56,378 nucleotides of DNA from a virus (Duplodnaviria; Caudoviricetes): positions 1 through 56,378 of IMG/VR virus record IMGVR_UViG_3300017779_000007, one strand, 5' to 3'. Shown in pieces: positions 3,427 to 50,651 of the stretch; within the stretch, counting starts at the first letter, position 1; each line of letters opens with the position of its first letter. The translations under genes and the position numbers were made by a program. The notes under the pieces were generated by a model. That model saw only the letters and a list, made by a program, of their open reading frames with translations, made no database searches and was not told the origin of the DNA.

Positions 3427-3454
3427 AGTATATTGGTTTGGCGCGTAATGTCAA
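3427..3454 (-). promoter_or_regulatory. Sigma70-type promoter for portal
   Basis: Minus strand TTGACA(3454-3449)-16 bp-TATACT(3432-3427), 8 nt before ATG 3418. Confidence 0.65.
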
Positions 3455-3891
3455 TCATTTGGGTAAGCCTCCTCCATAATCTTCTCCATCCGTACCCAGT
3501 GGGCGCGACCGTCTCTAGTCTTGAGACGGACGTATTCTTTCTTTCCGAAGTCCTTAGTATGCACTAAGAAGGGGACGCCCCTGTATTTTTTGCCTGTGTT
3601 CTGGTATTTCCAGACGGCTCCGTAAGGCGTTACCTTGTAATCGGGATAGTCGGCTACCACCACGAACTCCTCGTCCGGTAAGCCGTGTCGGACTACAGTC
3701 GGGTTGTCGTGGTTAACCTTTCTATACACACCGTCGTCATCAGTAACAAAGGAATGATGTTTTAGGCTCTGCCAATACCGCTTAATCTTTTTGTCGGTTT
3801 TAAGGTTGTAGATGTAATCGTCGTCGGTCAGGGCGTAGTGGGACGCTCCTTCAACGGGTGTCCAGTCTTCTGGTATGTGGTGTTTGGTCAT
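3451..3891 (-). CDS. Tandem NUMOD4-like DNA-binding protein without nuclease domain
   Basis: Two E.W/F..V.G/DY..Y.(L/V)T motifs (EDWTPVEGASHYALT; EEFVVVADYPDYKVTPYG); no HNH motif. Confidence 0.5.
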   Translation of the reverse strand: MTKHHIPEDWTPVEGASHYALTDDDYIYNLKTDKKIKRYWQSLKHHSFVTDDDGVYRKVNHDNPTVVRHGLPDEEFVVVADYPDYKVTPYGAVWKYQNTGKKYRGVPFLVHTKDFGKKEYVRLKTRDGRAHWVRMEKIMEEAYPND

Positions 3892-3904
3892 GTCGGAAGT
3901 CGGT

Positions 3905-3984
3905 AAAAAAAACTTTTCTCTGAGGCTCTTAGTACCTTATAATATATTATAAGGTACTATACGTCTAGGAAAAAAGTTTTTTTT
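3905..3984. repeat. 80-bp palindromic element, copy 1
   Basis: AAAAAAAACTTTT-12 nt-TAGTACCTTATAATA|TATTATAAGGTACTA (perfect 30-bp palindrome, 3930-3959)-12 nt-AAAAGTTTTTTTT. Confidence 0.95.
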
Positions 3985-4023
3985 CGTAGTTTAGGTGCGG
4001 GTTTTCCAGCACTCCATTCCCTT

Positions 4024-4101
4024 AAAAAAAACTTTTCTCTGAGGCTCTTAGTATCTTATAATATATTATAAGGTACTATACGTCTGGGAAAAAAGTTTTT
4101 T
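4024..4101. repeat. 80-bp palindromic element, copy 2 (direct to copy 1, period 119 bp)
   Basis: Near identical to copy 1, with one C>T change in the core. Confidence 0.95.
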
Positions 4102-4360
4102 ATTGGATTTTAAGTGCCGCTTTTCTAGCATTACGTTTTGCCATGATTTTAGCTTTGTTTTTGCGATAATACTCTTTGTTGTAATTCTTTACGCGATTCT
4201 TGAACGCCTCATACTCCTCCGGTTCAAGGACTTTTGCCACCTCCAATTTCCGAGAGTAGCTGTATTTTGTCTTACGGTAATACTCATTTTGGTAGTCGAG
4301 CCTCTTTTCCCGATTCTTCAAATAGTATTCCTTCTTCTTTTTTGGGTCGTAATTCGCCAT
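4100..4360 (-). CDS. Small Lys/Arg/Tyr-rich basic protein (86 aa)
   Basis: MANYDPKKKKEYYLKNREK...EYYRKNKAKI; promoter directly upstream. Confidence 0.65.
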   Translation of the reverse strand: MANYDPKKKKEYYLKNREKRLDYQNEYYRKTKYSYSRKLEVAKVLEPEEYEAFKNRVKNYNKEYYRKNKAKIMAKRNARKAALKIQ

Positions 4361-4365
4361 GCCCA

Positions 4366-4394
4366 ACTCTAGCCGAAAGCCAGACCCCCGTCAA
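4366..4394 (-). promoter_or_regulatory. Sigma70-type promoter, likely leaderless transcript
   Basis: TTGACG-17 bp-TAGAGT, 5 nt before ATG 4360. Confidence 0.55.
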
Positions 4395-4622
4395 TTTTTT
4401 TCTAAATGGTATATTGTATACACTGCACTCCGTGCAAAAATCCGAGACCTACCGGTGGCGTCTCCCGAACCCCGAACCCCAAATCACTATCATACTATCA
4501 TGATCAACGCATCACGATACGACGATGCGTTAGTAGTGGTGAGGGATCAGGGAAGCGGGATTCATGAATCAGGAATCAGGTGTCGGTGGATCGGAAGGAA
4601 GGCGGGGCATTGCTCTGCATCA

Positions 4623-4846
4623 GGTCCAGTGTCCGGTGTCCAGTGTCCGGTCTGGTGTCCGGTCTGGTGTCCGGTGTCCAGTGTCCGGTCTGGTGTCCGG
4701 TCTGGTGTCCGGTGTCCAGTGTCCGGTCTGGTGTCTGGTGTCTAGTGTCTGGTGTCCAGTGTCCGGTCTGGTGTCCGGTCTGGTGTCCGGTGTCCAGTGT
4801 CCGGTCTGGTGTCTGGTGTCTAGTGTCTGGTGTCTGGTGTCTGGTG
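4623..4846 (+). repeat. Tandem array of GTGTCYR heptamers with GTCTG pentamers
   Basis: Units GTGTCCG/GTGTCCA/GTGTCTG/GTGTCTA/GTCTG; 78-bp higher-order duplication 4674-4751 = 4752-4829. Confidence 0.95.
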
Positions 4847-4849
4847 TTC

Positions 4850-4884
4850 CCCGCTTCCCGCTTCCCGCTTCCCGCTTCCCGCTT
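4850..4884 (+). repeat. (CCCGCTT)5 heptamer array
   Basis: Five perfect copies; reverse complement GGGAAGCGGGA at 4550-4560. Confidence 0.95.
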
Positions 4885-5186
4885 CCCTTATCATGATTAC
4901 TGAATATCGAAAAAAGATTCGATTGTGCTTGCAATAGGTCAATTCCTTTTCTTGGCCCTCAGATGCGATCTGAGAGCGTTTGCCCCCGTCCGGCTGGTCC
5001 TATTCAATTTCTTTTCGAAACGCGATCCTGAGCGATTCGATGTTCTGTTGAACAGTGAAAAGGGTGTTCAAAACTTTGCCTTTATATAGTGTGTTTTTTG
5101 AGGGGCAGCCGGAACATCGAGAAGGGGTTGATTGGTAAGGGATTAGGGTGATCGGTGAAAAAAGAAAAGAATTTGACCGATTTAGC

Positions 5187-5215
5187 TTGCAGAAAGTAAA
5201 CCGTTATTTTAGTTT
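5187..5215 (+). promoter_or_regulatory. Putative early promoter
   Basis: TTGCAG-17 bp-TAGTTT with A-rich upstream tract; first plus-strand genes follow. Confidence 0.5.
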
Positions 5216-5223
5216 CTAGTCAT

Positions 5224-5276
5224 CGCCACAACGGCGTGAGTTGAGTCCACCGACCGACTGCCCCGATCTTTGAAAT
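5224..5276 (+). promoter_or_regulatory. boxB-like hairpin plus boxA-like antitermination motif
   Basis: CGCC-ACAAC-GGCG at 5224-5236; GATCTTTGAAAT at 5265-5276 resembles rRNA-leader boxA. Confidence 0.45.
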
Positions 5277-5330
5277 CACAGAATAGTTTAAGCGTCTTTT
5301 AAATAGCACGGGCCGACATTGGCCCGTTCC

Positions 5331-5395
5331 GCTATTCCCCGCTTCGGCGGGGCATAGCTCACAGCCTCCGGCCATGCCGGAAGTTGCGAGCTATG
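5331..5395 (+). ncRNA. Structured leader element, family 1, copy 1
   Basis: GCTAT-T-CCCCGC-TTCG-GCGGGG-C-ATAGC hairpin overlapping a second hairpin CATAGCTC...GAGCTATG that contains the ATG. Confidence 0.7.
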
Positions 5396-7556: not shown

Positions 7557-7612
7557 TCTTGATACACTGCCCCCTCCAGCCGGAGGGGGCAGTAATCAGG
7601 AATGAGCCTGAA
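7557..7612 (+). ncRNA. Structured intergenic element, family 2, copy B
   Basis: TCTTGAT-aca-CTGCCCCCTCC-agcc-GGAGGGGGCAG-ta-ATCAGG-aatgag-CCTGAA. Confidence 0.7.
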
Positions 7613-7634
7613 ATTAAACCAATAAAGAATAAAG

Positions 7635-7799: not shown

Positions 7800-7855
7800 T
7801 CTTGATACACTGCCCCCTCCAATCGGAGGGGGTAGTAATCAGGAATCAGCCTGAA
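7800..7855 (+). ncRNA. Structured intergenic element, family 2, copy C
   Basis: Near-identical to copy B; differences fall in loops or keep G-U pairing. Confidence 0.7.
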
Positions 7856-7873
7856 CTTAAACCCTAAAAATAA

Positions 7874-8998: not shown

Positions 8999-9641
8999 CA
9001 AGAATAAAACTGTGAAAAAAATAAAAGAATACCCCGAAGGGGACATAATCGAGTCCGCACCTGTAAGGTCTGGCCGGACTGAGTTGGAATACTACAAACT
9101 ACACCTATGGGCATATTCCGATGGAACATACACCATTGGTGATGATGACGGTGACCATGAGGAAGCTGATAAAGAGGATGTGGAGGAGTTCTTGAGGCTA
9201 TCGCCTCAACGACACAGGGCGTATGATGACTACGTTGCCGAGACCGGAGAAGACCCCTGCGAATTATACTTCGTTGCTCGAAAGCGTGAGGTCAATCAAC
9301 GTGTGGAGTTACACCTGCAAAACTACGTAGGGGCATCCGAGTTTGGATTGCGCCTAAGAAAGGTAACGCTCCCCAACGGTGAGGATATTACACCCGCCCA
9401 ATGCCTCGCCGATCACCCAAAATTGGCTGAGTTTATTGAGCTTAAAAAACAGGAGTCGGGACACTTCATCTTGGATGAGGTAAACGAGCAGGTGCTTCGG
9501 GAATGCCCCGAAGTAGAGGAGTGGCAGGATTATCTCAGCACCGTGTTCGTGAATGCTGTCTGGGATGAGCCGATCCCTGAAGAGGAACTGCGCGTCACGC
9601 TCCGAGAGAAGGCGAAAAAATCACTAGAAAGTAACCGATAA
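8982..9641 (+). CDS. Acidic early hypothetical protein (219 aa)
   Basis: ORF track; start uncertain (8982/8994/9012). Confidence 0.75.
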   Translation: MKTLMNKNKTVKKIKEYPEGDIIESAPVRSGRTELEYYKLHLWAYSDGTYTIGDDDGDHEEADKEDVEEFLRLSPQRHRAYDDYVAETGEDPCELYFVARKREVNQRVELHLQNYVGASEFGLRLRKVTLPNGEDITPAQCLADHPKLAEFIELKKQESGHFILDEVNEQVLRECPEVEEWQDYLSTVFVNAVWDEPIPEEELRVTLREKAKKSLESNR

Positions 9642-10545: not shown

Positions 10546-10580
10546 AAGGAGGTAGGGAGAAATCCCTGCCTCCTTTTTTT
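10546..10580 (+). terminator. Intrinsic terminator of early region
   Basis: GGAGGTAGGGA-GAAA-TCCCTGCCTCC followed by T7. Confidence 0.85.
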
Positions 10581-10652: not shown

Positions 10653-13600
10653 CTACTCAGATTCTGTAATAGGCCGGACAGGAATGTAGCGGTTGAGCTT
10701 TGAGGCGTGGTCGTAGACCTGCTGCGCTCGCGCCCTACCATATTCATCAGTCCTTGGGTCGAGCAGACCCTCGATAATGTATTTGAACGACGGCTTGTCC
10801 ATGTAACCTTTACTCAGTAGAGCGACCCGATCTCGACCCAGCTTCTTATCCTTCATCCCCTTGAGGAGGTCGGTGTTAGTGAGTCCGAGAGAGGCGAACC
10901 CTTTATTGATCCGCATCAGTTCGTAGTTAAGGAGGCGTCGATCCTCGATGTTCTCATCGATGATGTCCGCTACATCTCCGTCGCTCATCGGGACGTTACG
11001 CTTCACCGCGTTGAGTCCGCTCTTCACGTTGTTGTATCGCTTGTTTAGATCCAGCAGGTATCGCGAATACTGTTTCTGGAGATCAACATCATGAACACGC
11101 GCAGGCATCGCGCCGTCCATAATCTCAAGAGTCATGCCCTTCAGAGATCCGGTTGACCAGCCCTCGACAAAATCTTTACCAAGTCGCGGAGCGTATGCCT
11201 CCTTGGCGATGTAACCTAAGATCTTCGATCCAGCTTCCACCGGACCATCGGCCCCCTTATTCCAAATTGGTTTACCCGTTGACGGGTTAAGGTTTCGGCG
11301 AGCCTCAGACACTGCTCCCGCGAGAATCTGATCGTCTAAGTATTGATCCCTCACCAAGCCTAGCGCGAGAGCGGCTCCCGCTTCGGTGAACTCACCGCTG
11401 CGGATGTTCTCATACGCTCGCAGGAATGGATCGACCAGTAGCGAGTATGGATTAACGTAAGTAAGGTCAACCGACTTCAGCTCACCGTTCCATCTGTAAT
11501 AGAAGAACGTATGCCCTCTGAGGTAATCTGGAATGGATGCACGCATGGCCTCGTCCTCCTCATCTCCGATGCCCGAAAGAGCAGCGAGGATCATAGGAAG
11601 AGCGGAAGAAAGAACTCCTATCGTTCCGGTCATCCAGATCATTCTAGTTTTACCTCTCCGAACCAGAACAGGATTGCCGCTGGCGATCTCCTCACTGGCG
11701 AGCTTGTACGTGTTGATCACGATTCGCGGAACCTCCATCTTGAATCGGATGAACGGGGCGAACAGCAGGCCGAGGCCAGACTTCGTGTATGCTGCGACGG
11801 CTGGCGGTGCTTGGCTGTATGCCTGTGAGGTCATGACTACCTTGCGAGCGGCCAGACGCTTGATCTGCGTGTCGCTCATATTGGCTAGGTTGTTGACCCT
11901 CACTTTGCCGTCCTCGACCGTGCTTGTGTCGGCGGCTTGGGCTTCCTTCAGAATTGCCAACTCATGGTTGTAGTAGGCGACCTTGTAGGCGGCGTCGAGA
12001 GCGGCGGATAAATCCTGTGCCTTCTTCTCAATTATCGCTAGAGCCTTAGTGGCTTTATTGAGTTTCGTCTTTTCACCTAAGTCTTCGATCTGCTTCCTGA
12101 TGCCGTCGGGTGTTATCCTACCGTTCAGGAGGTCTCTCATAACTCCGGCGCGGAGTTCGTCGCCCTTGATATTCAGGCCGATAAGCTCATTAAGCTCTGG
12201 GTCAATCTCACCTTCGTTAAATGGGTTTAACACGCCGAAAGTCCCTTTCGCCATTTCAGCGATCATCTTATCGTAGCGGAGAAATCCCTGTGAGGTTCCG
12301 AACAATAAGTTACCGATTCCGTTTCGTAAGTAGAATCCGATGGAGCCTAGAGTCTTAGCTGCCATTGCCTTACCGCTCAGGTTAGCGGCTAAACCAACAG
12401 CTCCCTTAACAGCCTTCTCCGCTGTGTCGGCGTAATCCATCGAGAAGGAGTCATTGAGCGTAGTATCCAGAAGCTTTTTGAATTCAGGATCTACCTGCAT
12501 TCCTGAGAGGGGGTCGTTCTTACTCGGCGCACCCGATCTGGCGGCGACGAAGTTAGCATACTTGACGCGGTTCTCTTTGGTAGCGAGCTTCTCTTCCACC
12601 GTGACCATGACGCCCGTTTCCTTGCCGAATGCCACCAGTTGGTTCAGGAATGCCTGCTGCGAAGCGAGTGTCGCGACGGTCGAGTAAGTCCGAAGAATCA
12701 AATCAGTGCCAGCCTCCGACCCGATTTCGCCGAGAAGATTTCGGATCTCCACCGGCAAATCTTTGCGTCTTTTCAGGTTGTCCTCGATCATCTTGTAATG
12801 TTTAGGCGAAGCAGTCGTCGAGTCTCTGCCTCCTTCGTCATACCGCATCAAGAAAGTGTTAAGCACCTCTTGCGCGTATGATTTATGTGGGTAGCTTTGG
12901 TTCTCTTTTTCGAGGAGTATACGAGCTTCAACCTCGGCACGCGACTTGTCCATGCCGCCCTCAACCAGCTCCTCAAACTTCTTATCTTTAAACTGTTTAT
13001 TAAAGAACCTCATAGCCTCGTCCCTCACAACTTGATAATTGGGATCTTCCCTCACCTTCTGGAGGTAAGACGAGTCGGTGAACATCTTATAACTACGGGT
13101 AATGTAGACTCCTCCGGTCTCAGAGATCTTGACTCCAATATTATCGTCAAGGCCCGACTTAACGAGTTTCTTCTGCAACGGGATGATCAGCCTCTGCCGT
13201 ATGTCGATAATGTGAGCGGCAAGCTTCGGAGATTCCTTAGCGAGTTCTCTCAGAGCGGCGTCGCGGTCAGCTTCCCTAGAAGTGATAGCCTCTTCGTAAG
13301 CTTTATCGGTGGCCTCAGTTCTCGCATTATGGGCGAGTCCCTTTAGGGAGTCAGCTTCTTCCTCAGTGATTAAGCCTACTTTGCGCTTCTTCTCTGCGTC
13401 GGCGTGCGCGGCTTCGTAATCTTTATCAATATCTTTAAGAACTTCCTCAGTGACTATGTTACCTGTGTAGTGTCCCTGCGCGAGAGCGATCAAATCCATC
13501 GGCGCGTATTCGTAACCGCCGTAGTTTTCCTCAATGAGTTTATCCATCTCCTGTTTATAGGCGACGACGTTAGCCTCAGTAAGTCTCTTGTAAGCGTCTC

Positions 13601-16600
13601 GGTTCTGGATTAATCGGCGGAAGGCTTCTGGAAGCTCGCCAGCGAACACCTTATTCAGGAACTCCATGATGAAGTTCTGTGGCTTTCCGGTCTCCAGCTC
13701 GTATACAGGAATCTCAAGGAGATCGACCACTGCGGCGAAGTTTATGGTCGAACCTGTCGGCTTGCTGGACGGAGCGGCTGCGGCTGCGGTGGGGGCTGAA
13801 TACAGAGGTAGTTTTACGGTCTCAACTCCCTCGTCCGCTTTTCTAAATATAAGTTCGCGTTGAGAAACACCAACGGACGGTGGGAAGATGCTGTCTTCCT
13901 CCGATTTTTTAATTGGGTCTGTGTTGCCGTCATATGGATCGGCTGCTTTTTTGGGGTTAGGTTTCTTAGCCGAGTAAACTACGTCTTTCCACAGGTTGGA
14001 CTCACTCAGAACGTGGACTACAGGTGTCTCACCCGAAGTGCTGCGTATAGAATACGGGTATGAGTCATGGAAGTCAGTCTCGACGGCTTCGACCTCTCCC
14101 TTCATCGAGAGAACAGCGTATACCCGCCCAGAGGCTTTCTTATCCATTTGCTGAAATTGCTGGAAGGTCTTGACCAGAGGCTCTGCAAAAAGATCTGCCA
14201 TGCCCTGCATGACTGATGCCATTTTGAGGTTACCTGTAGGTATTAAAGATTTATTGTATAGGTTCTTGTCACCAGCCAGAAGGTTAGCTATGTTCAAAGC
14301 CTGATTTTTCTTTTTATCGAAAGCAGCTTTTTCCTTTGGGTTGAACTTCTTCTGAACTTCCGCTGTAGGCAGTTTCATGCTGTCAGCTATTGCTGACGCT
14401 ATCTGAGCGACAAAGGAACCGCGTTGTGGGAACACTGACTCTTCAGGGAGGAGATTCTTTTTCATCTCCTCTATGTTTTTAGCCAGTCCGTCTTTCAGCT
14501 TCAGTTTCCTTGAAAATTCTTTGATGGTGGTCGTCTCGACTCCTGTATCTTTGTCTTTCTTTTTAAGAACTAATCTCTCTTTACTGGCGTTAACAATAGC
14601 ACGGTTTACGACCGCCTCAGTGATCCCATACTTCTTGGGGTTCTTGGCTAGAGTGGCGAACAGGTTGACCGCTCCCGTAGCCATTGTTGTGGAGCTAAAC
14701 ATCTTCTCGATGGGAGCGGACGTGAGAGCCATCAGAATAGTTCCGTTGTTGCGCTTGGATATCTTGTTAAGGTTTTCCGCCATGTTCACGGCGGCGTCCT
14801 TGGTAGATGCCCAGAAATACCCTTGGTCACCGAACATGACTGGGTAGTAAACACCTCCCTTGCCGTCTACGACCTTATCGCCCTCGACCTCCAGTGTGCC
14901 TGCCATCGCGCCGTCAGGTTGGTGGAGCATGACGGCCATTCCCTCAAACTGGTCGAGGGATTGCTGTATCTTAATGTATCCGTTCTTGATCTTCTCGTAA
15001 AACTTCCCGTCCTCTTTGACGTAGATATGTTTAACTATGGGGTCACTCGCACTGGCGATTTCTGGTGGGATCTCGGCGGGTGTAGTAGCACCAGCCACCG
15101 GAGCAGAGTAAAGGATACTGCTTTTACTTTCATCGAACCGCTGGCTAAGTGGGATCACGTTGCCGTTAGCGTCACGGGTGATAGGGTCTGCGGATTTGAG
15201 TTGATCGGGTGACCTTACGACAAGGTGTTCCGTGTCGTGAAAACTGAACGCTTCCTCCAAGTCCTCATAGGTTGTTATGGTCTCGTTCGGGTTGTTCTCA
15301 AGGTAGAGTTCCGCGCCCCCGAGAGCAGAGTCCTTTTTTATCACGAAGTAACCGGATCGTTCATTTTGTCCATCTAGCGACACAGGCTCCCCTTGGTCAA
15401 AATCCCGCTGCTGCTTCTGGGTAGGGAACCCAGCAGGTTCACTAAACACAACCGTATCGAACCCAGAAGGGAAGCCATCCGTCTCCTCTCCACGAGCCAC
15501 CATTTGTTGTGCTGTAACTCGATCAATGGTTCGTCCTTTCTTGACGAAAAGGTCGAGAACCTTGTTGTCGGTCCGCTGATATCTATAGGACGAAAATGTG
15601 TCGGCTTCATTCGATACATGAAAACCGCGAATATTGGTGTCTGGATCAAACTCAGGGATCTCGCCTCGGTCGAATGCGTCGAAGGTTGCTCCAGTTGCGT
15701 GTTTAGTGCGGGTTTCATACCCCGCTGCCTTAGCGCGTCGTTCCACCATCGTCCTCAACTCAAGCCAGTTCTTCTCAGGATCTTTGGCAAGCTCTAGATA
15801 CTCAACGTCTTCTACCGGAGCAGACGCTAAACCAACGAAGTCCTGATTAACGACCTCAAACATTTGGAAAACTTCCGTCGGGTTCTTGGTATCGAACGCC
15901 ATCTTCGTAGGCTGACGGACGAACCCAGCTTCGATAGCTCGCATCTCAATAATCAACTTATTGAGGGCAACATCTGCTGCGGGTCCGATCTGTTCACGCT
16001 TGGCGACCCATCGGTTGATGATCCCCCTAAAGTAACGACCTAGAATTTTAAGTAAGGAAGGCTTGGATTTCCAGAATTGGTTATCATCCTCGGTAGTAAA
16101 GCCCCGTGTGACCTTCTGGAAGTGCATACGAAGTTTCTCTTGTGCCAACCCATACTTAGCTTTTGCGACCACTTGAGGGTCTGACGACTGAAGGCTCACT
16201 ATCGCAGCCGCAAGTCTTGGTTCGTTTCCGACATGGTATTCTTTAGCGATGTCCACGAAGTCCGAGTCAGAAAGACTGTTGATGTAATTCTGAACCTCTC
16301 CGTCGGTCATGGAACTCCAACTGGCACTATGCACTAACTCCTCGTTGATTATAACACCAGCGATTGCGCGTCCGGCGATGTCCCCAACGCCGCCTGTCTG
16401 GCTCAACATAAGAGGGAGGTTGATATATACCGCTGAAGAATCAGACTGCACAAAAGAAGAACTTCCATCGGACTCAGTAACAAATTCTAGTTCCATGCCG
16501 AATGGAATCAGACCTCTGAGATAATTCAGTAGGGGTAATGCTTTAGAGCGGTCTTCCTCTGGGATAAGTGAGAGGAATTTTTCGCGCTCTACCTCGTCTT

Positions 16601-19600
16601 TAAGACGCTTCGATTCAAGACGTTTTTCCTCTGTATCGTCCTGCATCTCGCGCAACGCTTCTCTCCTCTCCGCTTTCCTCTCAGCCATATATTCAGGAGA
16701 GAAAACTGGTGAACTGGATAACGTCGCGTTATTAGCGATTGCCCCAGCCAAAGCTCCGGCGTTGGTAGGCGGACCCTTGCGGGGATTGCTCCCCACGTCG
16801 ATAATATCTCCAAGAGACTCCGCTACTTCTTTAGCAGATCCTATCCCCACATTCGGGAACAACATAGCTATGTTGATAAGGAAGCTATCAAAGGGTGAGG
16901 AGTTGTTAGTTGGTTTTAGATTTTTGAAGTGCTTCTGAACGTCCTCCGACAACAAGAACTGAGCGGTGAACTCGTTAAGATCGACAAGAGCGTTCTCAAG
17001 AGATGGGACGGGTCCGCTGCTTTCTTTTTGCGATTCGTAGGTTTCTTTCGCGAAGTCGAAAACACTGGACAACTGGTTAACTATACCTTGTTTACTTGAG
17101 GGTGGATTTGAAATAGTTCCAGAAATGAATGCGTGGACATACTCCTCAAGTAATGTGTTGACGAGACCTCGACCGTTTCCAGACGTGACATTGATGAACA
17201 CACTGTCCGAGCCGTCTTTTCCCTTAACGTATTTTCCTGCGATGTCGGCTTTTGCTTCGCCCATCACAAACTTAATCTTCTTGATGAAGGCGGTGTCGCG
17301 CAGCAGCAAGGTAGCTACAAATTTATGGGAAGGGATCTTTGAATTTTTAGCGACTTCTTTAAGGGCTTCAATAACACTGTCGGGGTTCCCACTCTCAAGA
17401 CCCAGTCTCTCAATATCAGCCTTGTTCTCAGCCGTAATGACTGCCCTTTCGGCGGCAGAGATGTTAGATCTCGATAGGTGGGTTCGGACTGCTTTGGTTA
17501 AAGCAATCATTGTGTTCTTCGCCTCTTCCGCAGTGATCTCTGTTTCCGCGCCTGCATTGAACTGAGCTTGGAAATCGCTCACAGCGTCAGAGTTCTCGTA
17601 GCTAGCACCGTCTGAGGGGGTCACTAAGCGGACGAGTTGTAGCGCGTTCAGGAAATCTTCGCTGCCGATTAATACTTTGTCCTCCAGAATCTCCACAAGG
17701 CTATTAACAGACGGCCTAGTGTCGCCGTTTCCAGATGAAAGCCATGAAGCGAATATCCCGAACAGGTCTTTAGAACTCGCGTTCTCAACCATGTCTTCCA
17801 TCTCAGGATCTTCCAATACGTCTTCAAGAATAACCTTGACGATTCCCTTGCGTAAGTCTGGGCTAGTGTTTACGGTATTAACCGCTTTTTTCATCGCCCC
17901 AGATACTGTGTTACTTATATCTTGTGGGGAAGCGAAGTCGCCTACAGGGTTTTCACCGAAGTTAAAAACCCAACTACTTACTTTAGGGTTCTTGAATTGA
18001 TCGGGAGTTATATCGAACGGAAGGGTAGAGGCCGCTCTCTGTTGTCTAAGGGAGGTGGCTTTTTCTTGCTGATTCTTAAATTCGTTCGCGGCTTTTTTAA
18101 GTAGCGTATCGAAGGTCGGCGTTGTGTTATTAGCGAAGTCTGGGTTGTTCAAGAGTTTCTGCTCTACGAACAATCCGAGAATCGTTTCTCCCGTAAGCTC
18201 TTTGTTAGATTCTACTTTAATGAACGGGAGTAGTTTTTGAGCCGCTTGATCTACATTCTTAGATCCCGTCTGGGCTACCAGCTCATCGAAGGGAGTGGTA
18301 GGGTTGGTTCCTTCTCCGAACGCTTCTACTTTTGCGCGAAGACTAAACAACTGTGCGTTAAATAAGAATTCTTGTTTAGCTGACTCAAATGCCACCATGC
18401 GGAACTCCTCGTTAAGCTCCCCGTCGTTGGCTTCAAGGAGGGCTTGGGCGTTGCGATTCGTTTCGTCTCCGGTCTTCTCTAGCTCAAGGGCGAACCTATT
18501 GATTTTTCTTTTGATCGACGTAGTATTAGAAAAGTTTCCATCAGTAATTGGGCTTCCATTTTTGTCAAAGTCTGGAACACCTTCAGGTAAGGTCGCAGGC
18601 TTGAAACGGATACTAGCTATAGCAGAAGCTCTCGTATTGTTTGGCCCAATCGAACTTACGCCCCTCGCGTTAGTGACCTTAGACTCTAGGAGAGTGCCGT
18701 CGGCAGTAGGTCCGACCACGTCACTAACCATCTCATTTTTAATTCGGATAGCGGGGTTGAGGTTTGCTCTATTGAAACTACGAGGAACCTTAACGGTTTT
18801 ACCAGCCCTCAACATCTCAATAATAGAGATCGGGTCGTTGTCGAACACGCCATTACCTCTATCATCAACGAAGAATTTAACTGGCTGGGTAACGGTCTTA
18901 CCGGATACGGGATCGAAGTAAGTCCTGAAAGGTCTCTTCTCATTATCAGGGTCGAGCTTCGCGTTCTTTGGGGGAGCGAGTTTAGGGTAAGCTGTATAAA
19001 CAGCAGAAGACACAAACTCTGACGCGGACTGGCGAGACGAGTCAGGAGGCATAGGTAAACCGTAGTTTACGTTGGGGTCAGGATTAATCGGAAACCCATT
19101 ACCCATCGCGAAGCCAATAAGCCTGTTAGCTTTCTCCTCTGCGTCAGGCCCACTAAAGGGAGACTCTTCATACCTAAATGTATTGGGTGACGGCCTTGAA
19201 GAATACCTCTTGGATTTAGTTGGGTCGAATCCACGGACGCTGTTGTTAGCGGAACTTATGTTCGTTCTGGACTCGCCTTGAAGGGTGACGCCAGCAGATT
19301 CTGCGTTAGCCTGTTCTTGAGTAAAGTCGATATAAGGTCCGGTGTAGTCCTTAATTTCTCTAGGGGATTTACGACCGTAATCGAAAGGAGTCTCTAGAAC
19401 TGTGACGGGTTCACTATTTCTAACGGAGACGCTCTGCTGGTTTCTGATGTTCTCTAAAGCAATTTCAACGTCGAGTGGGCTAGAATCGTTCAGGGACTGC
19501 AAGAACACCACCGGATCTACCTTCTGGTCAGTAAGTGCGAAATCAGGAGTAGTAGGTGACTGCGCTGCAACTTCAAGGTTTTGTTCCTTTTGCGAAATGG

Positions 19601-24766: not shown

Positions 24767-25321
24767 CTAGGTTAAGGTTTTAGCTACGGGCTTCGATTTT
24801 TTCTTTTGAAGGTCGGATTTTACATCCGACAACAGGCCAGCCTTTGAAGTTTTCGACGGTACGCCGCCCACTCCGGTAAAAGCGTTGGAGACAGTGCCAA
24901 ATTTGTAGTTAGGGTCAAATACGTTTAGCGTGGGAGAGCTAGCGTCCGAACTCGACGTATTTGAGGGGGGAGAGCTAGCGTCCGAACTCGACGTATTTGA
25001 GAAGGTGTCCCCCATACCAGTTCTTGCGATTTTCGACGCCCCGCCCCCAACAGGAGAAGACTCGAAAAGACTTTTCGAGTAACTACCAATTTCGTAGTTT
25101 GGGTCTTGCATGGCTTCTAACCTACCGAGACCCGTAGTCTGGTTCATTACATTTTGCGTTGCTTCTGCTGCATTTGTAGGGGCTGCTGGAGCTGCTGCTG
25201 GAGCTGCTGCTGGAGCTGCTGCTGGAGCTGCTGCTGGAGCTGCTGCTGCCGTAGAAGCGGCGTTCTTCTTCGCCTGATTTGACTCCTGTGCTTCTTTTAG
25301 AATTTTTTTTCTATCGGCCAT
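24767..25321 (-). CDS. Low-complexity protein (184 aa), putative internal virion protein
   Basis: (AAAP)n tract from a 12-bp repeat at about 25182-25247; NTSSSDASSP duplicated (36-bp period, 24932-25001). Confidence 0.55.
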   Translation of the reverse strand: MADRKKILKEAQESNQAKKNAASTAAAAPAAAPAAAPAAAPAAAPAAPTNAAEATQNVMNQTTGLGRLEAMQDPNYEIGSYSKSLFESSPVGGGASKIARTGMGDTFSNTSSSDASSPPSNTSSSDASSPTLNVFDPNYKFGTVSNAFTGVGGVPSKTSKAGLLSDVKSDLQKKKSKPVAKTLT

Positions 25322-25323
25322 GA

Positions 25324-25617
25324 TTACCAGAGGTGCTTGCAGGCCCAGTGGCGTGCGGTTGTCTTGTCTTTCGCGGTTTTGCAGTTGTGTCTGGCCCTGA
25401 AATTAGCCCGACGCTTTGGGTTCTTGTGTTTCGTAAAATCGCTGTAATCACGATGTCCATACGAGACTTTCTTGATTTTGTCGCCTTCCTTGCCTAACAC
25501 GACAAATTTTTTTTTCGATCCTTTCGGGGCGCGTTTAGGCTTATTAAAGCCAGCGAACGTCTCGCCGTGGTATTGGATACGGCCAGAAGGGAGCCGCTTG
25601 AATCGTTTATTCGCCAC
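25324..25617 (-). CDS. Small basic phage protein (YG..DY.DFT.H....RR..FRARH.C...W pattern; DUF5754-like)
   Basis: Motif recognition; GTG 25617 lies 6 nt after a -10 box. Confidence 0.65.
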   Translation of the reverse strand: MANKRFKRLPSGRIQYHGETFAGFNKPKRAPKGSKKKFVVLGKEGDKIKKVSYGHRDYSDFTKHKNPKRRANFRARHNCKTAKDKTTARHWACKHLW

Positions 25618-25623
25618 AGGCAA

Positions 25624-25652
25624 AAGATACAGGTTTTAGGAACAAGTGTCAA
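25624..25652 (-). promoter_or_regulatory. Sigma70-type promoter, likely leaderless
   Basis: TTGACA-17 bp-TATCTT-6 nt-GTG. Confidence 0.65.
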
Positions 25653-25669: not shown

Positions 25670-25748
25670 AAAAAAACTTTTTTCCCAGACCTTTAGTACC
25701 TTATAATATATTATAAGGTACTAAGAGCCTCAGAGAAAAGTTTTTTTT
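25670..25748. repeat. 80-bp palindromic element, copy 3 (inverted relative to copies 1 and 2)
   Basis: Reverse complement reads AAAAAAAACTTTTCTCTGAGGCTCTTAGTACCTTATAATATATTATAAGGTACTAAAGGTCTGGGAAAAAAGTTTTTTT. Confidence 0.95.
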
Positions 25749-27538
25749 TAGCTGATCAGGCTGGTATCTGGATTATTGAGCGCACCGCTAAGACTTTTAA
25801 TCGTAACCTGTTTCCTGAACCCCTTACCGTCATCGTCTTTCGGTGGGTCAACAGCCACTAATCCTAATCGCTGGCGAGCGCAATCGAGAGCCAAGAACGC
25901 AGCATCTGCCAAGTCTGGGCTGCGACCAAACCGTGCCTTGAACTCTGGTTTCGACTCGATCTTCACTCTCAGCGTGCCTGTTCCCTTAGTCATGTCGTAG
26001 TTTCTGGCACACATTTCCTGTGCGAGATCCGACGATACACCGTAGATCTGCTTAGTTCTCAGCAGTTCCTTGCCGACGAACCAGAGTTCAGAGACTCTAT
26101 TAGTGTAGAGTTCGGCTCCGGTAAGCTGGCTGTTCATGCTGACACGCTTGTCTGATCCTTTACCACCGAAGGTGACGCGCATAAAGTCGCTCGACCACTC
26201 GCCAGCCAACACGTCGCAGAACGGCGCACCCGCTCCGGTCGAGTCGAGTGCTACGTTATTAGCAGAGATATTCCTCCGTTTGCAGTGGTCGATAATCTGG
26301 TGGACGATCTGGTAGGTGCGCGGAACCGCTTTATTAGTGGCGTCATCGTTTAAGTGGATCGCCTCTCCCAATTTACATACGTATTGGCCGTTTCGGGCGT
26401 AGCCTACTTCGGCGGTATACATAATAGTCCGGTCGCCCCCGTTCGTGAAGGCAGGGTCTATTCCGGCCACCGCCGTCGGTTTTCCGGCCCAATCGACCTC
26501 CCCCATCGCACCACCTTTAGTAAGCTCCGCCTCAGAGTAGATTCCCGTTGTTTCGTCAGAGTCGAAAAAGACTGCGCGAACCATCCTCATATATCCTCTG
26601 GACTCTGGCCCTAATAACGCCCTGTCTTCCGCCAGCTTCTCAGCGGTGGGTAGCCAAGGATATTTAACCTCTCCTAAAGTAATGTTTGGACTCCGCTCAC
26701 CATCCAGTCTAATATATTTACCGTTCCATTTAGTCTTCCATTCGTCAGCGGTCTGCGTATCCACGGACTCCCAGCCCTTCTTCGGCTCCGACCAGACGCC
26801 GAAAGCGTCAAACCTACTATTCGGGTTGGACATACCAATCATTTGAAATGACGGGTTCTTAGATAAGTTAGTCAGGCCAGCCTGCAAGATGCTCTCAGAA
26901 AGTTCTGAAAGCTCGTCGCCGATCATAATCACGCGCTTCTGCTTGATTCCGATGAATTTGCCAATCGCCTCTCTCGTCTTAGATTTTTCCGCTGCAATAA
27001 GCGATAAACCAGCTCTCTCGATAAGCGTGCCGTTTTCATCGATGTAGGCAGCGTTTCCTATTGAGTCCCGTATCTTGATCGGCGCACCATCGATCACGGA
27101 CAATAGAGACATTACTGAACCCCATATCCTTTTTCGCGCTTCCCGTAGCGTTGTTGAGGTCATCAGGACTAGTGTGTCGCGTGGCTGAGATAGCCACTGG
27201 ACGATTCCCCATGCGGCCATTGTGTGTGATTTACCGGACGACGCAGAACCACCGACCGCCAGATACTTGTGCTTAATCGCTGCCCGAATCATTTTTTCGG
27301 CCCAAGGATGGCGAACCATCATATGCTCCGGTAGTTCTTCCCTATTCCAGAGTTCGTCGCAGACTCGCCAGAAGTAAAACTCCTTGGCCTTGTCGTTCGG
27401 GTGGTGCGCGAAACCGTAAAGTAAAGCGGTAAGGAGACTGGTGGGCTGGATCATTAGACCGCCCACGTCCATCTTCTTGGATTGCGGGTCGATGCGCGGC
27501 TCCAGAACGCGCTTGCGTTTGTCTGCTTCGGAAGGCAT
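25748..27538 (-). CDS. terL: Terminase large subunit (about 596 aa from ATG 27538)
   Basis: Walker A GSASSGKS, Walker B IMIGDE, SNPN, nuclease motifs GIDPA..GGDRT and SPDLADA. Confidence 0.9.
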   Translation of the reverse strand: MPSEADKRKRVLEPRIDPQSKKMDVGGLMIQPTSLLTALLYGFAHHPNDKAKEFYFWRVCDELWNREELPEHMMVRHPWAEKMIRAAIKHKYLAVGGSASSGKSHTMAAWGIVQWLSQPRDTLVLMTSTTLREARKRIWGSVMSLLSVIDGAPIKIRDSIGNAAYIDENGTLIERAGLSLIAAEKSKTREAIGKFIGIKQKRVIMIGDELSELSESILQAGLTNLSKNPSFQMIGMSNPNSRFDAFGVWSEPKKGWESVDTQTADEWKTKWNGKYIRLDGERSPNITLGEVKYPWLPTAEKLAEDRALLGPESRGYMRMVRAVFFDSDETTGIYSEAELTKGGAMGEVDWAGKPTAVAGIDPAFTNGGDRTIMYTAEVGYARNGQYVCKLGEAIHLNDDATNKAVPRTYQIVHQIIDHCKRRNISANNVALDSTGAGAPFCDVLAGEWSSDFMRVTFGGKGSDKRVSMNSQLTGAELYTNRVSELWFVGKELLRTKQIYGVSSDLAQEMCARNYDMTKGTGTLRVKIESKPEFKARFGRSPDLADAAFLALDCARQRLGLVAVDPPKDDDGKGFRKQVTIKSLSGALNNPDTSLIS

Positions 27539-34667: not shown

Positions 34668-36425
34668 ATGATTACATACGCATTAGATTTTGAAACCTAC
34701 TACGACAAGCACTGCTCGATACGAAAGCTTGGCCCGTTAGGTTACTTCTCCCATTACGACTTCGACGCCTATATGGTGAGCGTTGTCGGAGATGACGGCT
34801 ACGAGTTTGTAGGCCACCCTGAAGATTTTGACTGGAACCTGCTTAACGGCAACATCGTCCTGTCCCATAACGCATCATTCGATGAAACACTTTACCTATA
34901 TGGAATCAACTGCGGTTGGTGGCCGGAGGTGAAACCAGCCGAATGGCACTGCACCGCCGACATGGCCGCTGCGGTCGGCTTGCCGAGATCGCTGAAGAAC
35001 TCAACTGCTGAAGCTTTCGATCTGGAGGTCTCTAAATCCACCCGTGATAATATGTCTGGCAAGACGTGGGCGGGTATGACTAAAGAGTTCCAGAAGGAAG
35101 TAGAGGAATACGCCATCAAGGACTCCGTCCTCTGCCTCCGTCTGTGGAAGGCTTACGAGTCTAAATGGTCGCAGTTTGAGAGGGACATCAGCGTTACGAA
35201 TCGACGGATCGTTCAGAGAGGAATCCCGATTGACGTGGACGCTCTACGCAAAGCTAAGGAGACGATCAACGAACTCATTTTTGAAACAGAGAAGGCGATA
35301 CCTTGGGCAGACGAGAAGCCGTTACTTAGCCGGAAAGCGTTCGACGAACACTGCATTCAACTCGGCATCGAACCGCCAGCCTCTCTCGCTAAAACGGATG
35401 TCGATGCCCAGCGGTGGATACTGGCACATGGCCACAAATACAAATGGATCGAGGCCGTAACGAACTGGCGTCGTATAAACACGATCAAGAAGAAGCTCGA
35501 TAGCTTCGACTTCGCGACGATGCCGGACAGCAGATACTACGGCGGCATTATGTATTTTGGCGGACACACCGGACGCTTCAGCGGTAGTGGAGGTAATCTT
35601 AATCTCCAGAACTTGCCGAGAGAAGGAATGTTCGGGGTTAATATGCGTAACCTCATTACCGCGCCTAAAGGTAAGAAGCTAGTCGTCGTTGACCTATCTC
35701 AGATCGAAGTCCGCACTCTTTGTTGGCTATCCGGTGACCGAGAGACGATGGACGCAATCGAGAAGTCCGACGACATCTACGAGGCATTCGCGATCCAGTT
35801 CGGTCTGTGGTCTGAAGACAAGGGAGTCCTGAAGAAGAAAGACGCCAAGCTAAGACACAAAGTCAAGGCTCTCGTATTGGGCTGCGGCTACGGTGCAGGG
35901 GCTAAACGGTTTGCTGAGATGTATGATATGCCTCAGAAAGAAGCTCAAGACGCTGTGGATCTTTACCGAACCAAGCTCGCGAAGGTTCCCCAATACTGGA
36001 AGAAGCTCAACAAAGAAATCGATAAAGCCTATGATGTCGGCCACCTGTCTCTACCGCTACCGTCTGGCAGGTCTCTTAACTACGGGAATATCCGCAAGAC
36101 TCTGGCCCAAGGACGAATCCAGTTTGTTTCCAGCATTAACCGGAACGGCCAGAAACGCATCATGAAACTGTGGGGAGGAGTCCTCGCTGAGAATCTCTCA
36201 CAGGCTCTGGCCAGAGATATTTTCAGTTTCATGATGTTAGAGATCGACAAGGCTGGCATAGACATTATCTTCCATGTTCACGATGAAGTGATCTGCGAAT
36301 GTGATGAAGACGAAGCCGAAGAAGTCCTACAAAAAATTACTAAAATTATGTCCACTCCTCCTGAGTGGATTAGCGATATCCCTCTGGATGCGGAGGGAGA
36401 AATTCTAACCCAATACCAAAAATAA
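34668..36425 (+). CDS. polA: DNA polymerase family A with 3'-5' exonuclease
   Basis: DFET, HNASFD, YAIKD; motif A DLSQIEVR, motif B RHKVKALVLGCGYG, motif C VHDE. Confidence 0.95.
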   Translation: MITYALDFETYYDKHCSIRKLGPLGYFSHYDFDAYMVSVVGDDGYEFVGHPEDFDWNLLNGNIVLSHNASFDETLYLYGINCGWWPEVKPAEWHCTADMAAAVGLPRSLKNSTAEAFDLEVSKSTRDNMSGKTWAGMTKEFQKEVEEYAIKDSVLCLRLWKAYESKWSQFERDISVTNRRIVQRGIPIDVDALRKAKETINELIFETEKAIPWADEKPLLSRKAFDEHCIQLGIEPPASLAKTDVDAQRWILAHGHKYKWIEAVTNWRRINTIKKKLDSFDFATMPDSRYYGGIMYFGGHTGRFSGSGGNLNLQNLPREGMFGVNMRNLITAPKGKKLVVVDLSQIEVRTLCWLSGDRETMDAIEKSDDIYEAFAIQFGLWSEDKGVLKKKDAKLRHKVKALVLGCGYGAGAKRFAEMYDMPQKEAQDAVDLYRTKLAKVPQYWKKLNKEIDKAYDVGHLSLPLPSGRSLNYGNIRKTLAQGRIQFVSSINRNGQKRIMKLWGGVLAENLSQALARDIFSFMMLEIDKAGIDIIFHVHDEVICECDEDEAEEVLQKITKIMSTPPEWISDIPLDAEGEILTQYQK

Positions 36426-39932: not shown

Positions 39933-40216
39933 TTTAAGCGTTTAAGGATTCGTTCGTAGGCTGGAAAGAAGACCTCGTCGATGCATCGGACGCAGGCTTC
40001 CTCTTCAAAGTTCTCGCAGAACGAGATACCAGCGATGTGGAAGGCGGCGTGTAGCATTTCATGGCGTAAGGTCGGGATGATTTCGTGTTCTGGTAGTTTG
40101 TTGTGTAACTGGATTATCCGCTTCTCATGGAGATACTGACCGTAGCACCCCTCTAACTCAGTCTTGTGGATCTTGATCCGCTGACCTGCAATCGTGACTG
40201 ATTTTAGGGATTTCAC
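39929..40216 (-). CDS. Small zincin-like metallopeptidase
   Basis: TLRHEMLHA (HExxH) plus downstream EE. Confidence 0.7.
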   Translation of the reverse strand: MKSLKSVTIAGQRIKIHKTELEGCYGQYLHEKRIIQLHNKLPEHEIIPTLRHEMLHAAFHIAGISFCENFEEEACVRCIDEVFFPAYERILKRLK

Positions 40217-40428
40217 TTCTTGGATCTGTTCCTTGATTTGCTGAGTAGTTGTAAGTTCCCGCGTGAGTTGTTTCTAGGATTACCGTCTTTGTGGTCAACG
40301 TCCTTGCCCTTGACCCGCTTGCCTAAGATCTTCTTCATTTTACGGCGTGCGCCATTACGGCTAGCCCGATTCTTTTTCTGCTCCGGCTTGCTGTGGTAGT
40401 TGTCGTATTCTTTTTGGTAGTTCCTCAT
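40213..40428 (-). CDS. Small HNH endonuclease
   Basis: DVDHKDGNPRNN...NL......NR. Confidence 0.8.
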   Translation of the reverse strand: MRNYQKEYDNYHSKPEQKKNRASRNGARRKMKKILGKRVKGKDVDHKDGNPRNNSRGNLQLLSKSRNRSKK

Positions 40429-49403: not shown

Positions 49404-50651
49404 CTAAACAACGGGTTTGAAAATCTTCGTGGTCTCTTTCAACCAGCCTCCTCTAAACTTCTTAACAGTAGAAGACACAGTCATCTCCTCCGGCCAGTCG
49501 GTGTGGTTAGTCGCGTCGAAACTATAAACTCCGGCGGTGTAGACATACGTCTCATCTTCTGTTCCGTTAGTCACGCTTATAGACACTGGTCCGTGCAGCG
49601 TCTCCCTGACGTTCAAATTGAAGTAGGGGGTGGATACAGCGATTGATTCGGGCTGCATGGTCTTAGTAAGAGTATCTGGAGAAGGTTGACTGTCAGACCA
49701 CACAACCGAAACGACTGCTTTACACGGCCCTCTATACGCCCCTTTAGAGTATTTGACCCTTGGTGAGTAGGTCTCAGCACCGGATCTCTTCTCCCAGAGG
49801 TCAAAATAAATAGCCTCTAAGACAGGCGGGAAAGAGTAATTCACATACGAAGTATAGGAGAAGGCTCCGCCTCCGTCGGCTTTATTTACAACTTGTTGCT
49901 TTGTGACCGCATACCAGTTGTCTGAGAGTTGCTGCACCGTCCGTAAAATGCCGCCCGACGTTAATTTCCAGTATTCGCTGTTAGGGTCTTTTGCTAGAGC
50001 CGAGATAGAATACGATACCGAATTTACTAAGACTTGCTCAGTCGCATACATCAAGGTCTGCTTCGTGTAGTTCGTCTTTGAGAAAAACTCGTCGTAGTCC
50101 AGACGATACAGGGGGACTTTCTTAACGTAGACCCGCTGCTCGATGACATACAGACCGTTAAGCACCTTGTCGTTAATCGGGATCTGTTTACGCTGTGCCA
50201 GAACATACGTATCGTTATGAGACCCTCCAAGTTCATCAACTCTAGCGGTTGAGGGGAACTTATCGACCGGAACATTGGGAATAGTATCTCCCATCGCCGG
50301 AAGTTCTGGGTCGAACTCGCTACGGCGGATCACGTAGTCCCGCGCCACGGCGTCGAACTTAGTTCCTCCGATATCAGCTTCCGTATACGACCAGTTGTCG
50401 TTGTCCTGATCTAGCTGGTCAGCAGCGTAGTAGTAACGGTAATACCGAGTCTGTTGTTTAGGGTCAGCGGCCTCGACGTGGACCAGTCTGTGGTTTGGCC
50501 ACTTCTTGGAGTCTGGATGCTTGCTACCGTATTCCGGTATGTCCGTTCCGACCCGCTCTGCGTCTACGGACTCAAAGAATAAGATGTCGTTGACGTTCGG
50601 CGTGGGGAACGTGACGACTGACTGTCTCTGCGGTGATGGGTTAAGGGCCAT
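49404..50651 (-). CDS. Putative tail structural protein (415 aa)
   Basis: Beta-rich ORF in structural operon. Confidence 0.6.
   Translation of the reverse strand: MALNPSPQRQSVVTFPTPNVNDILFFESVDAERVGTDIPEYGSKHPDSKKWPNHRLVHVEAADPKQQTRYYRYYYAADQLDQDNDNWSYTEADIGGTKFDAVARDYVIRRSEFDPELPAMGDTIPNVPVDKFPSTARVDELGGSHNDTYVLAQRKQIPINDKVLNGLYVIEQRVYVKKVPLYRLDYDEFFSKTNYTKQTLMYATEQVLVNSVSYSISALAKDPNSEYWKLTSGGILRTVQQLSDNWYAVTKQQVVNKADGGGAFSYTSYVNYSFPPVLEAIYFDLWEKRSGAETYSPRVKYSKGAYRGPCKAVVSVVWSDSQPSPDTLTKTMQPESIAVSTPYFNLNVRETLHGPVSISVTNGTEDETYVYTAGVYSFDATNHTDWPEEMTVSSTVKKFRGGWLKETTKIFKPVV

Follow-up and report, generated by a model that had tools for sequence, protein, structure and literature searches.

What is an AT-rich palindrome of about 80 bp doing in three copies in one phage genome? 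The question is raised by IMG/VR virus record IMGVR_UViG_3300017779_000007, the complete 56-kb record of an uncultured marine phage. The whole stretch, 56,378 nucleotides, is called the window here. The original prediction, made from the letters of the window, described the three copies and offered several roles for them: an origin or cruciform, a recombination or resolution site, a miniature inverted-repeat transposable element (MITE), or a bidirectional regulatory site. The last of these fits best. We found that the element is not peculiar to the window. It belongs to a conserved, clade-wide family that follows gene ends at two fixed places. Our preferred reading, held with middling confidence, is that it would serve as an intrinsic terminator or insulator, long-stemmed, factor-independent, and active in both directions, that separates transcription domains.

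Three copies at two loci

The window carries the element at two loci 21.7 kb apart, each with unique flanks. Two copies, E2a (3905..3984, 80 bp) and E2b (4024..4101), lie side by side. The third, E1 (25670..25749), is inverted relative to them. All three have the coordinates and anatomy that had been described. A 13-bp arm (A8CTTTT) is followed by a 12-bp spacer (CTCTGAGGCTCT), a 30-bp core (TAGTACC..GGTACTA, with TATAAT on both strands), a second 12-bp spacer, and a 13-bp inverted arm. The core had been called a perfect palindrome. This does not hold for E2b, where one mismatch (TAGTATC) makes the palindrome imperfect. The 30-mer core, allowing up to 3 mismatches, occurs 3 times in the window against 0.00 times expected by chance (100 shuffles), and the arm pattern AAAACTTTT-N45-75-AAAAGTTTT likewise occurs 3 times against 0.00. 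GC content of the elements is 0.25-0.29, and the A and T runs that flank them are 6-9 nt long.

Two of the copies start where a gene stops. As predicted, E1 and E2b begin inside the TAA of an upstream gene, and both genes lie on the minus strand. The T-run of E1 overlaps the TAA of terL, the large terminase gene (25748..27538), which reads towards the element from its ATG at 27538. The T-run of E2b overlaps the TAA of p88 (4100..4366), an open reading frame (ORF) of 88 amino acids (aa) that encodes a small basic protein with repeated EYY-KN-EK motifs. On the other side of this locus, E2a lies 13 nt before the ATG of p146 (3451..3891, minus strand), the gene immediately downstream. The 39 bp between E2a and E2b (3985..4023) had been taken for unique sequence, but they are a decayed duplicate of the p88 3' end. 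Because the gap is such a copy, E2a and E2b read as a 119-bp tandem duplication. The repeat (our family D4) spans 3904-4018 and 4023-4137 at 89% identity.

Each strand of each copy folds into one long hairpin, with energies of -25 to -38 kcal/mol and z scores of -4.7 to -8.0 against shuffled sequence. The two strands give -34.4 and -31.0 kcal/mol for E2a (z -6.7 and -7.7), -32.7 and -24.8 for E2b, and -36.1 and -38.3 for E1. The two spacers had been described as poorly complementary. They are indeed partly mismatched, but 6 of the 12 positions form Watson-Crick pairs in the hairpin and G-U pairing adds 3 on one strand or 2 on the other, which leaves the spacers half-paired. The whole window has no Rfam match at gathering score. 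Around the element there are only sub-threshold matches to miRNA-precursor-like long hairpins, the best at 32 bits against a cut-off of 119. No tRNA or tmRNA was found in the window.

Misassembly of the copies had been named as one way in which the prediction could fail. The same arrangement is found in independent assemblies, namely the IMG/VR contig of L001/L004, with the tandem pair also in genomes G001 and G002. It is therefore not an assembly artefact.

Conservation and concerted evolution of the element

A terL search returned 462 related stretches, and the best 80 were kept (82-99% identity). From these, 54 distinct elements downstream of terL were aligned, and a covariance model was built on the alignment. 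The model places the element after terL at 75 of the 80 loci, 54 of which match by construction as they supplied the model; the remaining 5 contigs end at terL. Loci outside the alignment (L014, L027, L029, and L087) score 38-52 bits. In the window its hits are the three copies alone (72-88 bits); the next best site scores 14.6 bits. On the plus and minus strands, respectively, scores are 84.0 and 77.9 bits for E2a, 79.2 and 72.5 for E2b, and 87.9 and 82.7 for E1. The TerL protein (596 aa; PHROG phrog_2, E 2.6e-13) has homologues among environmental sequences only, and neither blastn of 3451-4400 nor tblastn of terL gave a match in a 50,697-record phage collection. We therefore regard the clade as uncultured, and from the run labels as marine.

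Downstream of terL the architecture is nearly constant among relatives while its letters change. The conserved parts, in order, are an A-tract, an 8-bp outer stem, a half-paired 11x11 interior, an inner stem of 13-15 bp, and a T-tract. In the consensus fold of the 54 sequences (RNAalifold) the inner stem has 15 bp, for 23 pairs in all, and 19 of the 23 show compensatory double changes. Pairing is conserved right up to a loop of 3-4 nt. The stems are about 90% Watson-Crick paired, against 47% for the interior, which is pyrimidine-rich on its 5' side and purine-rich on its 3' side and has a conserved A-G/C-U pair mid-way. Five alignment columns are invariant: A7 and A8 in the 5' run, T75 and T76 in the 3' run, and one A in the inner stem. 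A5 and T77 are conserved in at least 90% of the sequences. The TATAAT of the core is not conserved, the cores of relatives being, for example, GTAATTACTAATTGC or TTGGAGAGTCCAA, and a promoter within the core was rejected on that ground. It had been foreseen that homologous loci keeping only base pairing, with RNA 3' ends at the T tracts, would point to a simple bidirectional terminator. In sequence this is largely the pattern seen, as pairing and the A and T tracts are kept while the letters change.

The second locus is also fixed. All 23 further records searched carry the element, and those that are long enough have two loci, 19-25 kb apart. In all 15 two-locus genomes, locus 1 has the order terL, element, DUF5754 gene (with no DUF5754 match in G009), and locus 2 has the order p88, element, p146, p756. 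The p88 gene is found upstream of E2 in 13 of 14 related genomes; the contig of the other, G010, stops before p88. An element also lies upstream of p146 at 12 of 13 additional p146 loci, the exception (L159) having none within 614 nt.

Some lineages have gained copies. Five complete or near-complete genomes (G000-G004) have three each. The third copy is either a tandem one at locus 2 or, in the G003/G004/G007 lineage, a copy in the plus-strand early operon. Tandem duplication at locus 2 occurs in G000, G001, G002, and G009. The third site is at 1505-1582 of L126 (13656-13739 of G007), 13637-13720 of G004, and 25261-25344 of G003. The copy there is the lineage's own element. It begins at the stop codon of a 126-aa gene, about 190 nt before a DUF932 gene.

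Copies within a genome resemble each other more than they resemble their orthologues. Within a genome, E1 and E2 have on average an identity of 0.90 (range 0.74-0.99; 15 genomes), compared with 0.68 for orthologous E1 elements of different genomes, and the best match to E1 is the genome's own E2 in 14 of the 15. Inner stem, loop, and spacers are shared by the copies of one genome and differ strongly between genomes. The original prediction had taken the identity of the spacers as an argument for protein recognition. This argument fails. Since the spacers differ freely between genomes, their identity within one is a by-product of homogenisation, and on the alignments the copies are evolving in concert.

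The interiors also flip. Relative to E2, the interior of E1 has the opposite orientation in 10 of the 15 genomes (7 clearly) and the same orientation in 5 (4 clearly). In G001, E1 is flipped in place with respect to the window, yet it retains the E1-specific AAGG beside the stem. As interior orientation is not fixed relative to transcription, whatever the element does must be symmetric. Gene conversion would keep the copies alike, and recombination or template switching across the inverted arms would flip them.

A candidate terminator between transcription domains

The place of the element in the genome becomes clear from a transcription map, which we drew from gene strands, AT skew, and the helix-turn-helix (HTH) gene that starts at 27550. 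With rising coordinates, E2 is followed by a short minus-strand unit (p88 and p104), a non-coding region (4934-5380), and a plus-strand operon that extends to 10527. Next come a GC-rich convergent terminator (10546) and a long minus-strand operon, which runs from a promoter at 25652 down to a giant ORF. Beyond E1 are terL, on the minus strand, and the HTH gene with the replication operon, on the plus strand to 38801. The second long minus-strand structural operon passes through the contig ends to about 3418, and p146 leads back to E2. On this map of gene strands, a short leftward unit ends at each element, and a long structural operon has the element at its head.

Both long structural operons begin with a promoter-like sequence. 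A sigma-70-type promoter (TTGACA-17-TATCTT, 25624..25652, minus strand, 10/12 matches) begins 17 nt past E1, and relatives have a promoter of the same sequence or type downstream of their element. The promoter of the window precedes the gene for a basic DUF5754 protein (25324..25617, minus strand; Pfam PF19058, E 4.1e-11; PHROG 7595), which heads the long minus-strand operon reaching a 3921-aa ORF. The GTG of this gene at 25617 is conserved, and the -10 box is only 6 nt upstream of it. Of the 14 relatives with a tblastn match to the DUF5754 protein, 10 have alignments that begin at residue 3, and the other 4 have alignments from residue 1 or 2. A second sigma-70-type sequence (TTGACA-16-TATACT, 3427..3454, minus strand, 11/12 matches) lies at the p146/p756 junction, 8 nt before the ATG at 3418. 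The second long structural operon may have its own promoter here. With -10 boxes only 6-8 nt before the start codons, both long structural operons appear to have leaderless or nearly leaderless mRNAs.

How would a terminator at these places work? The RNA of either strand would present an A-tract, an 8-bp outer stem, a half-paired interior, an inner stem of 13-15 bp, and a U-tract. The hairpin and U-tract would release the host RNA polymerase. E1 would end the terL unit just ahead of the sigma-70 promoter of the giant-gene operon, and E2a/E2b, the tandem pair, would close off the short p104-p88 unit upstream of p146 and the second structural operon. The element being symmetric, antisense read-through from both convergent plus-strand operons would be stopped too. 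Such symmetry makes sense because read-through from a convergent plus-strand operon would cross the structural operon and arrive at the element's other side. Between them, the two loci would divide the circular map into a pair of transcription domains. DNA does not stably maintain long perfect palindromes, and the mismatched interior may have been retained so as to avoid one. A ribosome halted at the TAA in the A-run would sit over the 5' side of the outer stem and so make termination weaker where the transcript is translated (cf. PMC4824070). If ribosomes act in this way, a firm stop at locus 2 would be regained at the second tandem copy, which is untranslated.

Several lines of evidence point to termination, and to termination in both directions. 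The hairpin appears to be under selection, as judged by the 19 of 23 compensated pairs and the fold z scores. All 54 aligned sequences have a U-run 3' of the stem and an A-run 5' of it, and the same is true of the other strand. Elements sit at the 3' ends of genes, namely at the stop codons of terL, p88, and the 126-aa gene of G007. In some relatives (e.g., L042-44) the palindrome is extended outwards by unrelated sequence, which fits selection on pairing rather than on a motif. Among stem positions that are not Watson-Crick paired on the terL-sense strand, G-U outnumbers A-C by 53:26, or by 19:8 after clustering at 70% identity (binomial p 0.05). This excess could also arise from strand-biased mutation. 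The sense strand is the more stable in 34 of 53 elements and the antisense strand in 19, a weak difference with a mean of -2.1 kcal/mol. Together, the A and T runs, compensated stems, starts at stop codons, promoter after E1, outward growth, and G-U excess have the look of an intrinsic terminator acting on two strands.

Other observations weigh against this reading. The element has the structure and position of a terminator, yet in sequence it lacks the G+C-rich stem expected beside the U-tract: that segment is CUUUUC/GAAAAG, with 2 G-C pairs of 6. The elements went unflagged in a consensus terminator scan, which needs 3 or more G-C pairs, and the terminator-like sites that it reports elsewhere in the phage are short and GC-rich (10546-10575, 53103-53065, and 55952-55930). 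The distance from A-tract to T-tract is nearly constant across the clade, a constancy that a plain terminator does not need. A TTRGT motif at the base of the inner stem is near-invariant and would be superfluous. Several lineages have extra inner-stem half-sites, which occur at the element loci only. The elements lie in co-directional gene arrays, where the need for a bidirectional stop is not obvious. Finally, p146 would need read-through, because E2a ends 13 nt before its ATG and leaves no room for a promoter.

Conventional bidirectional intrinsic terminators are short and GC-rich and lie between convergent genes. The element resembles them in being a palindromic hairpin between an A-tract and a T-tract, and each strand thus reads as a hairpin followed by a U-tract. 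It differs in being long and AT-rich and in lying between co-directional genes. To our knowledge, no antitermination system has been described in this phage. A closer likeness is TerR of plasmid pLS20. Long stems with an A-tract and a U-tract form hard-stop terminators that resist processive antitermination, and in the parts of the report considered here TerR has an A-tract, an unusually long stem that tolerates imperfections, a long U-tract, and a place at the end of a unit (Miguel-Arribas et al. 2023, PMC10325885). Its function is described there as dependent on stem length and not on sequence. In the same account TerR is a single-copy element whose stem, about 15 bp long, has G-C-rich ends. 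The phage element instead has a composite stem of about 35 positions with a half-paired interior and a weak A-U-rich base, is symmetric on the two strands, and is homogenised between loci.

A further parallel is found in the PeSL cassettes of the T4-type phages phi1 and RB49, stem-loops that were shown to terminate transcription (Arbiol et al. 2010, PMC2839356, as far as the parts used here describe). They are AT-rich intergenic cassettes that start from the upstream stop codon and combine a terminator stem-loop with a sigma-70 promoter. They are also repeated within a genome, where the copies are recombination substrates. According to that source there are about 50 per genome, in hyperplastic regions, with short stems that often carry G/C runs and lie in or beside the promoter. 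The phage element is present 2-3 times, at fixed core positions, and forms an AT-rich hairpin of 76 nt that has two stems as well as A and T tracts. An adjacent promoter is present at the terL copy only (25652-25624) and not at E2a. We saw no gene shuffling at the copies, and nothing like tens of copies in variable regions. In copy number and distribution the element is not a PeSL.

If the terminator reading is true, the clade has a well-defined hard-stop insulator that divides the phage genome into two transcription domains. Its evolution would be readable in compensation, homogenisation of loci 20 kb apart, flips in place, and tandem and ectopic duplication. The family would then be a natural series of long AT-rich terminators for weighing stem length, A and T tracts, and an interrupted interior. 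It would also be a cheap operon-boundary marker for annotating an abundant uncultured marine phage group with no cultured relative in the collection searched.

Alternative roles and the wider gene map

The element could instead be a genome-specific site that is read by a phage protein and controls entry of RNA polymerase into the two structural operons. We consider this possible but doubtful. The protein would bind it as double-stranded DNA, cruciform, or RNA hairpin, and the site would serve as a roadblock, regulated terminator, or antiterminator; basal terminator activity could coexist with this. The prime candidate is p146, the next gene in all 15 genomes and at 12 of 13 further loci. This adjacency, however, is synteny shared within one clade and does not represent independent events. 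The constant geometry and the conserved TTRGT would suit a recognised site. So would the close match of copies within a genome (0.90, against 0.68 for orthologues; own E2 best in 14/15 genomes), but this identity includes loops and mismatched positions, and gene conversion alone would suffice for it. Pairing that continues up to a 3-4-nt loop is unnecessary for a dimer operator.

Extra half-sites occur in some relatives. They form symmetric arrays at the element loci only, in G014, G023, and L158. G014 has 4+4 half-sites with identical 54-19-54 spacing at both loci (9282-9424 and 49547-49689), G023 has 4+9 (4761-4896 and 34915-35244), and in L158 they are nested (95-264). The larger palindrome around the element in several relatives measures about 150 bp; its outer arms carry copies of the inner-stem half-site, spaced identically at the two loci of a genome. 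The genome of the window has no extra half-sites: a 16-mer half-site (up to 3 mismatches) is confined there to the six arms.

What kind of protein is p146? It is predicted to be a two-domain all-beta protein (AlphaFold2 mean pLDDT 89.6). Its match to PHROG 6086 (E 1.4e-6) covers residues 74-145 only. In the predicted structure, the C-terminal domain is folded like the DNA-binding domain at the N-terminus of I-HmuI (1u3e_M residues 1-66; VIA-align Z 9.4, root-mean-square deviation 2.1 over 64 aa), and the next best match has a Z of 3.2. This match came from the exhaustive aligner only, as Foldseek against the PDB gave nothing at E <= 0.001. The protein has no HNH catalytic part. Its N-terminal half evolves fast, and whole-protein identity is 30-89%, compared with 74-97% for p756. 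We compared pairwise distances of p146 and element in the 15 genomes by rank correlation, with terL, p756, p88, and the C-terminal domain as controls. No N-domain signal was left after the controls, and co-variation with the element was absent beyond phylogeny (partial rank correlation 0.06; C-domain 0.33).

The lambda nutL/nutR boxB sites with N and the mycobacteriophage stoperators are 13-15-nt sites without A or T tracts. The element is like them in having a few genome-specific copies near the starts of long operons, with a fast-evolving small phage protein beside one copy. It is unlike them in that no co-variation with p146 was found.

We tentatively raise a more specific form of protein recognition, which is rather improbable. 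In this form p146, with two I-HmuI-N-type beta-sheet DNA-binding domains and no nuclease, would bind the palindrome at both loci, and the extra half-sites of some lineages, as a boundary switch. It would either gate polymerase into the structural operons or recruit a 71-aa HNH protein to nick the palindrome. A stand-alone 71-aa HNH-family protein is encoded at 40213-40428 (minus strand), adjoining the endolysin gene. Together with p146 it would amount to an I-HmuI-like enzyme split over two genes. Under either version of the switch, the DNA-binding module of a homing endonuclease would have been taken over as a regulator in this abundant, uncultured marine clade, and its sites would evolve in concert with it. 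Protein recognition in general, if true, would make this a new type of phage transcription switch derived from a homing-endonuclease DNA-binding domain.

A role for DNA structure is unlikely. On this account the palindrome would be extruded as a cruciform or hairpin and function as a replication origin, nick site, pac signal, or recombination or resolution site. The AT-rich, near-perfect palindrome with its TA-rich centre would suit extrusion, but the mismatched interior reduces cruciform stability. The flip-flop of the interior between genomes recalls palindromes processed through hairpins, and one copy abuts terL. Family searches (PHROGs on 65 ORFs, Pfam on 44 ORF queries) show that the phage encodes a RuvC-like resolvase and a PD-(D/E)XK exonuclease, besides the stand-alone 71-aa HNH. 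The first two belong to a replication module with a helicase, family A polymerase, and primase; an endolysin and tail-related proteins were also identified. The element loci are neither in this module nor beside it, and protelomerase, tyrosine or serine recombinase, and Rep/HUH families were all without match in those searches. The cumulative GC-skew minimum lies near 26-27 kb, but it coincides with a switch in gene strand and is uninformative. All 15 genomes share one gene order across both loci, so neither an inversion nor a deletion between copies has become fixed. Because their flanks are unique, the elements are not hairpin ends. The invariant A and T tracts and the abutment to stop codons would be left unexplained.

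The element could also be a selfish or neutral palindromic repeat of the MITE or REP type, spreading and homogenising without benefit to the phage. This is very unlikely. The locus-2 tandem duplications in G000, G001, G002, and G009, the new third site in one lineage, and concerted evolution are what such a repeat would produce. Against it are orthologous positions (two loci in 15/15 genomes and 75/80 terL loci, at terL divergence down to 82%), a count of just 2-3 copies, stems upheld by compensatory change, and the absence of target-site duplications at the element ends. Many dispersed, non-orthologous copies with target-site duplications, the mark of a MITE or REP family, were not seen.

Least likely is an RNase III-type processing or mRNA-stabilising signal between cistrons, like R1.1 of T7, in place of a terminator: sites of that type form families of similar copies within one genome, as here, and an imperfect duplex of more than 30 bp with a conserved internal loop between cistrons is compatible in structure, but processing has no use for invariant A and T runs or two-strand symmetry.

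Two further identities were considered. Protelomerase targets (telRL of N15-type phages) are 50-80-bp palindromes with a TA-rich centre, and the element shares the size, the centre, and, in some relatives, nested inverted repeats. No protelomerase family was found in the searches above, from which distant homologues could escape. Instead of a single site there are 2-3 internal copies at two loci, 21.7 kb apart in the window, with unique flanks and imperfect interiors, and the contig closes on itself into a circular map. The suggested protelomerase-type recombination site, origin, and MITE thus found no support, given the lack of recombinase or protelomerase matches, the unique flanks, and the orthologous positions in 15/15 genomes. 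N4-type promoters go with a virion RNA polymerase gene and are short (5-7 bp) hairpins upstream of early genes. The elements follow genes and do not stand ahead of early genes, and in sequence-level searches the 3921-aa ORF matched no RNA polymerase.

There is an exact 123-bp terminal overlap (1-123 = 56256-56378), which lies inside an ORF that runs from 55980-56378 and continues in 1-903. Since it sits inside an ORF, this "direct terminal repeat" is probably the closure of a circular or permuted assembly and not a physical genome end.

Some neighbouring features were recorded along with the map. The ATG of terL (27538, minus strand) and that of an HTH_23 protein (27550, plus strand) are back to back, 11 nt apart, so the promoter of each gene must lie inside the other gene. 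The HTH_23 protein is possibly a small terminase or a regulator. The 3921-aa ORF (10653-22418, minus strand) makes up one fifth of the genome and has no PHROG family. Pfam gave only a sub-threshold ART-PolyVal match (residues 2240-2411), and there was no sequence match in the PDB, RNA polymerases included.

Several other repeats are distinct from the element or lie away from it. A 64-nt intergenic cassette occurs twice in the plus-strand early operon (7557-7620 and 7800-7863; 92% identical). Each cassette has a GC-rich hairpin (ACTGCCCCCTCC..GGAGGGGGCAGT) with no T-run after it, and the two make up a second, separate repeat family. Just upstream of p88, the small ORF p104 contains about 270 bp of 12/14-nt tandem repeats of GGTGTCCGGTCT type (4586-4855). 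An exact 34-nt repeat is found twice at 24932-25001, with starts 36 nt apart, in the ORF at 24767-25321, and is followed by GCT-rich 12-nt repeats at 25168-25257. Finally, two intergenic 28-nt direct repeats (54812-54839 and 54869-54896; 96% identical) sit downstream of a promoter-like TTGACA-16-TAAGAT (54938-54911, minus strand).

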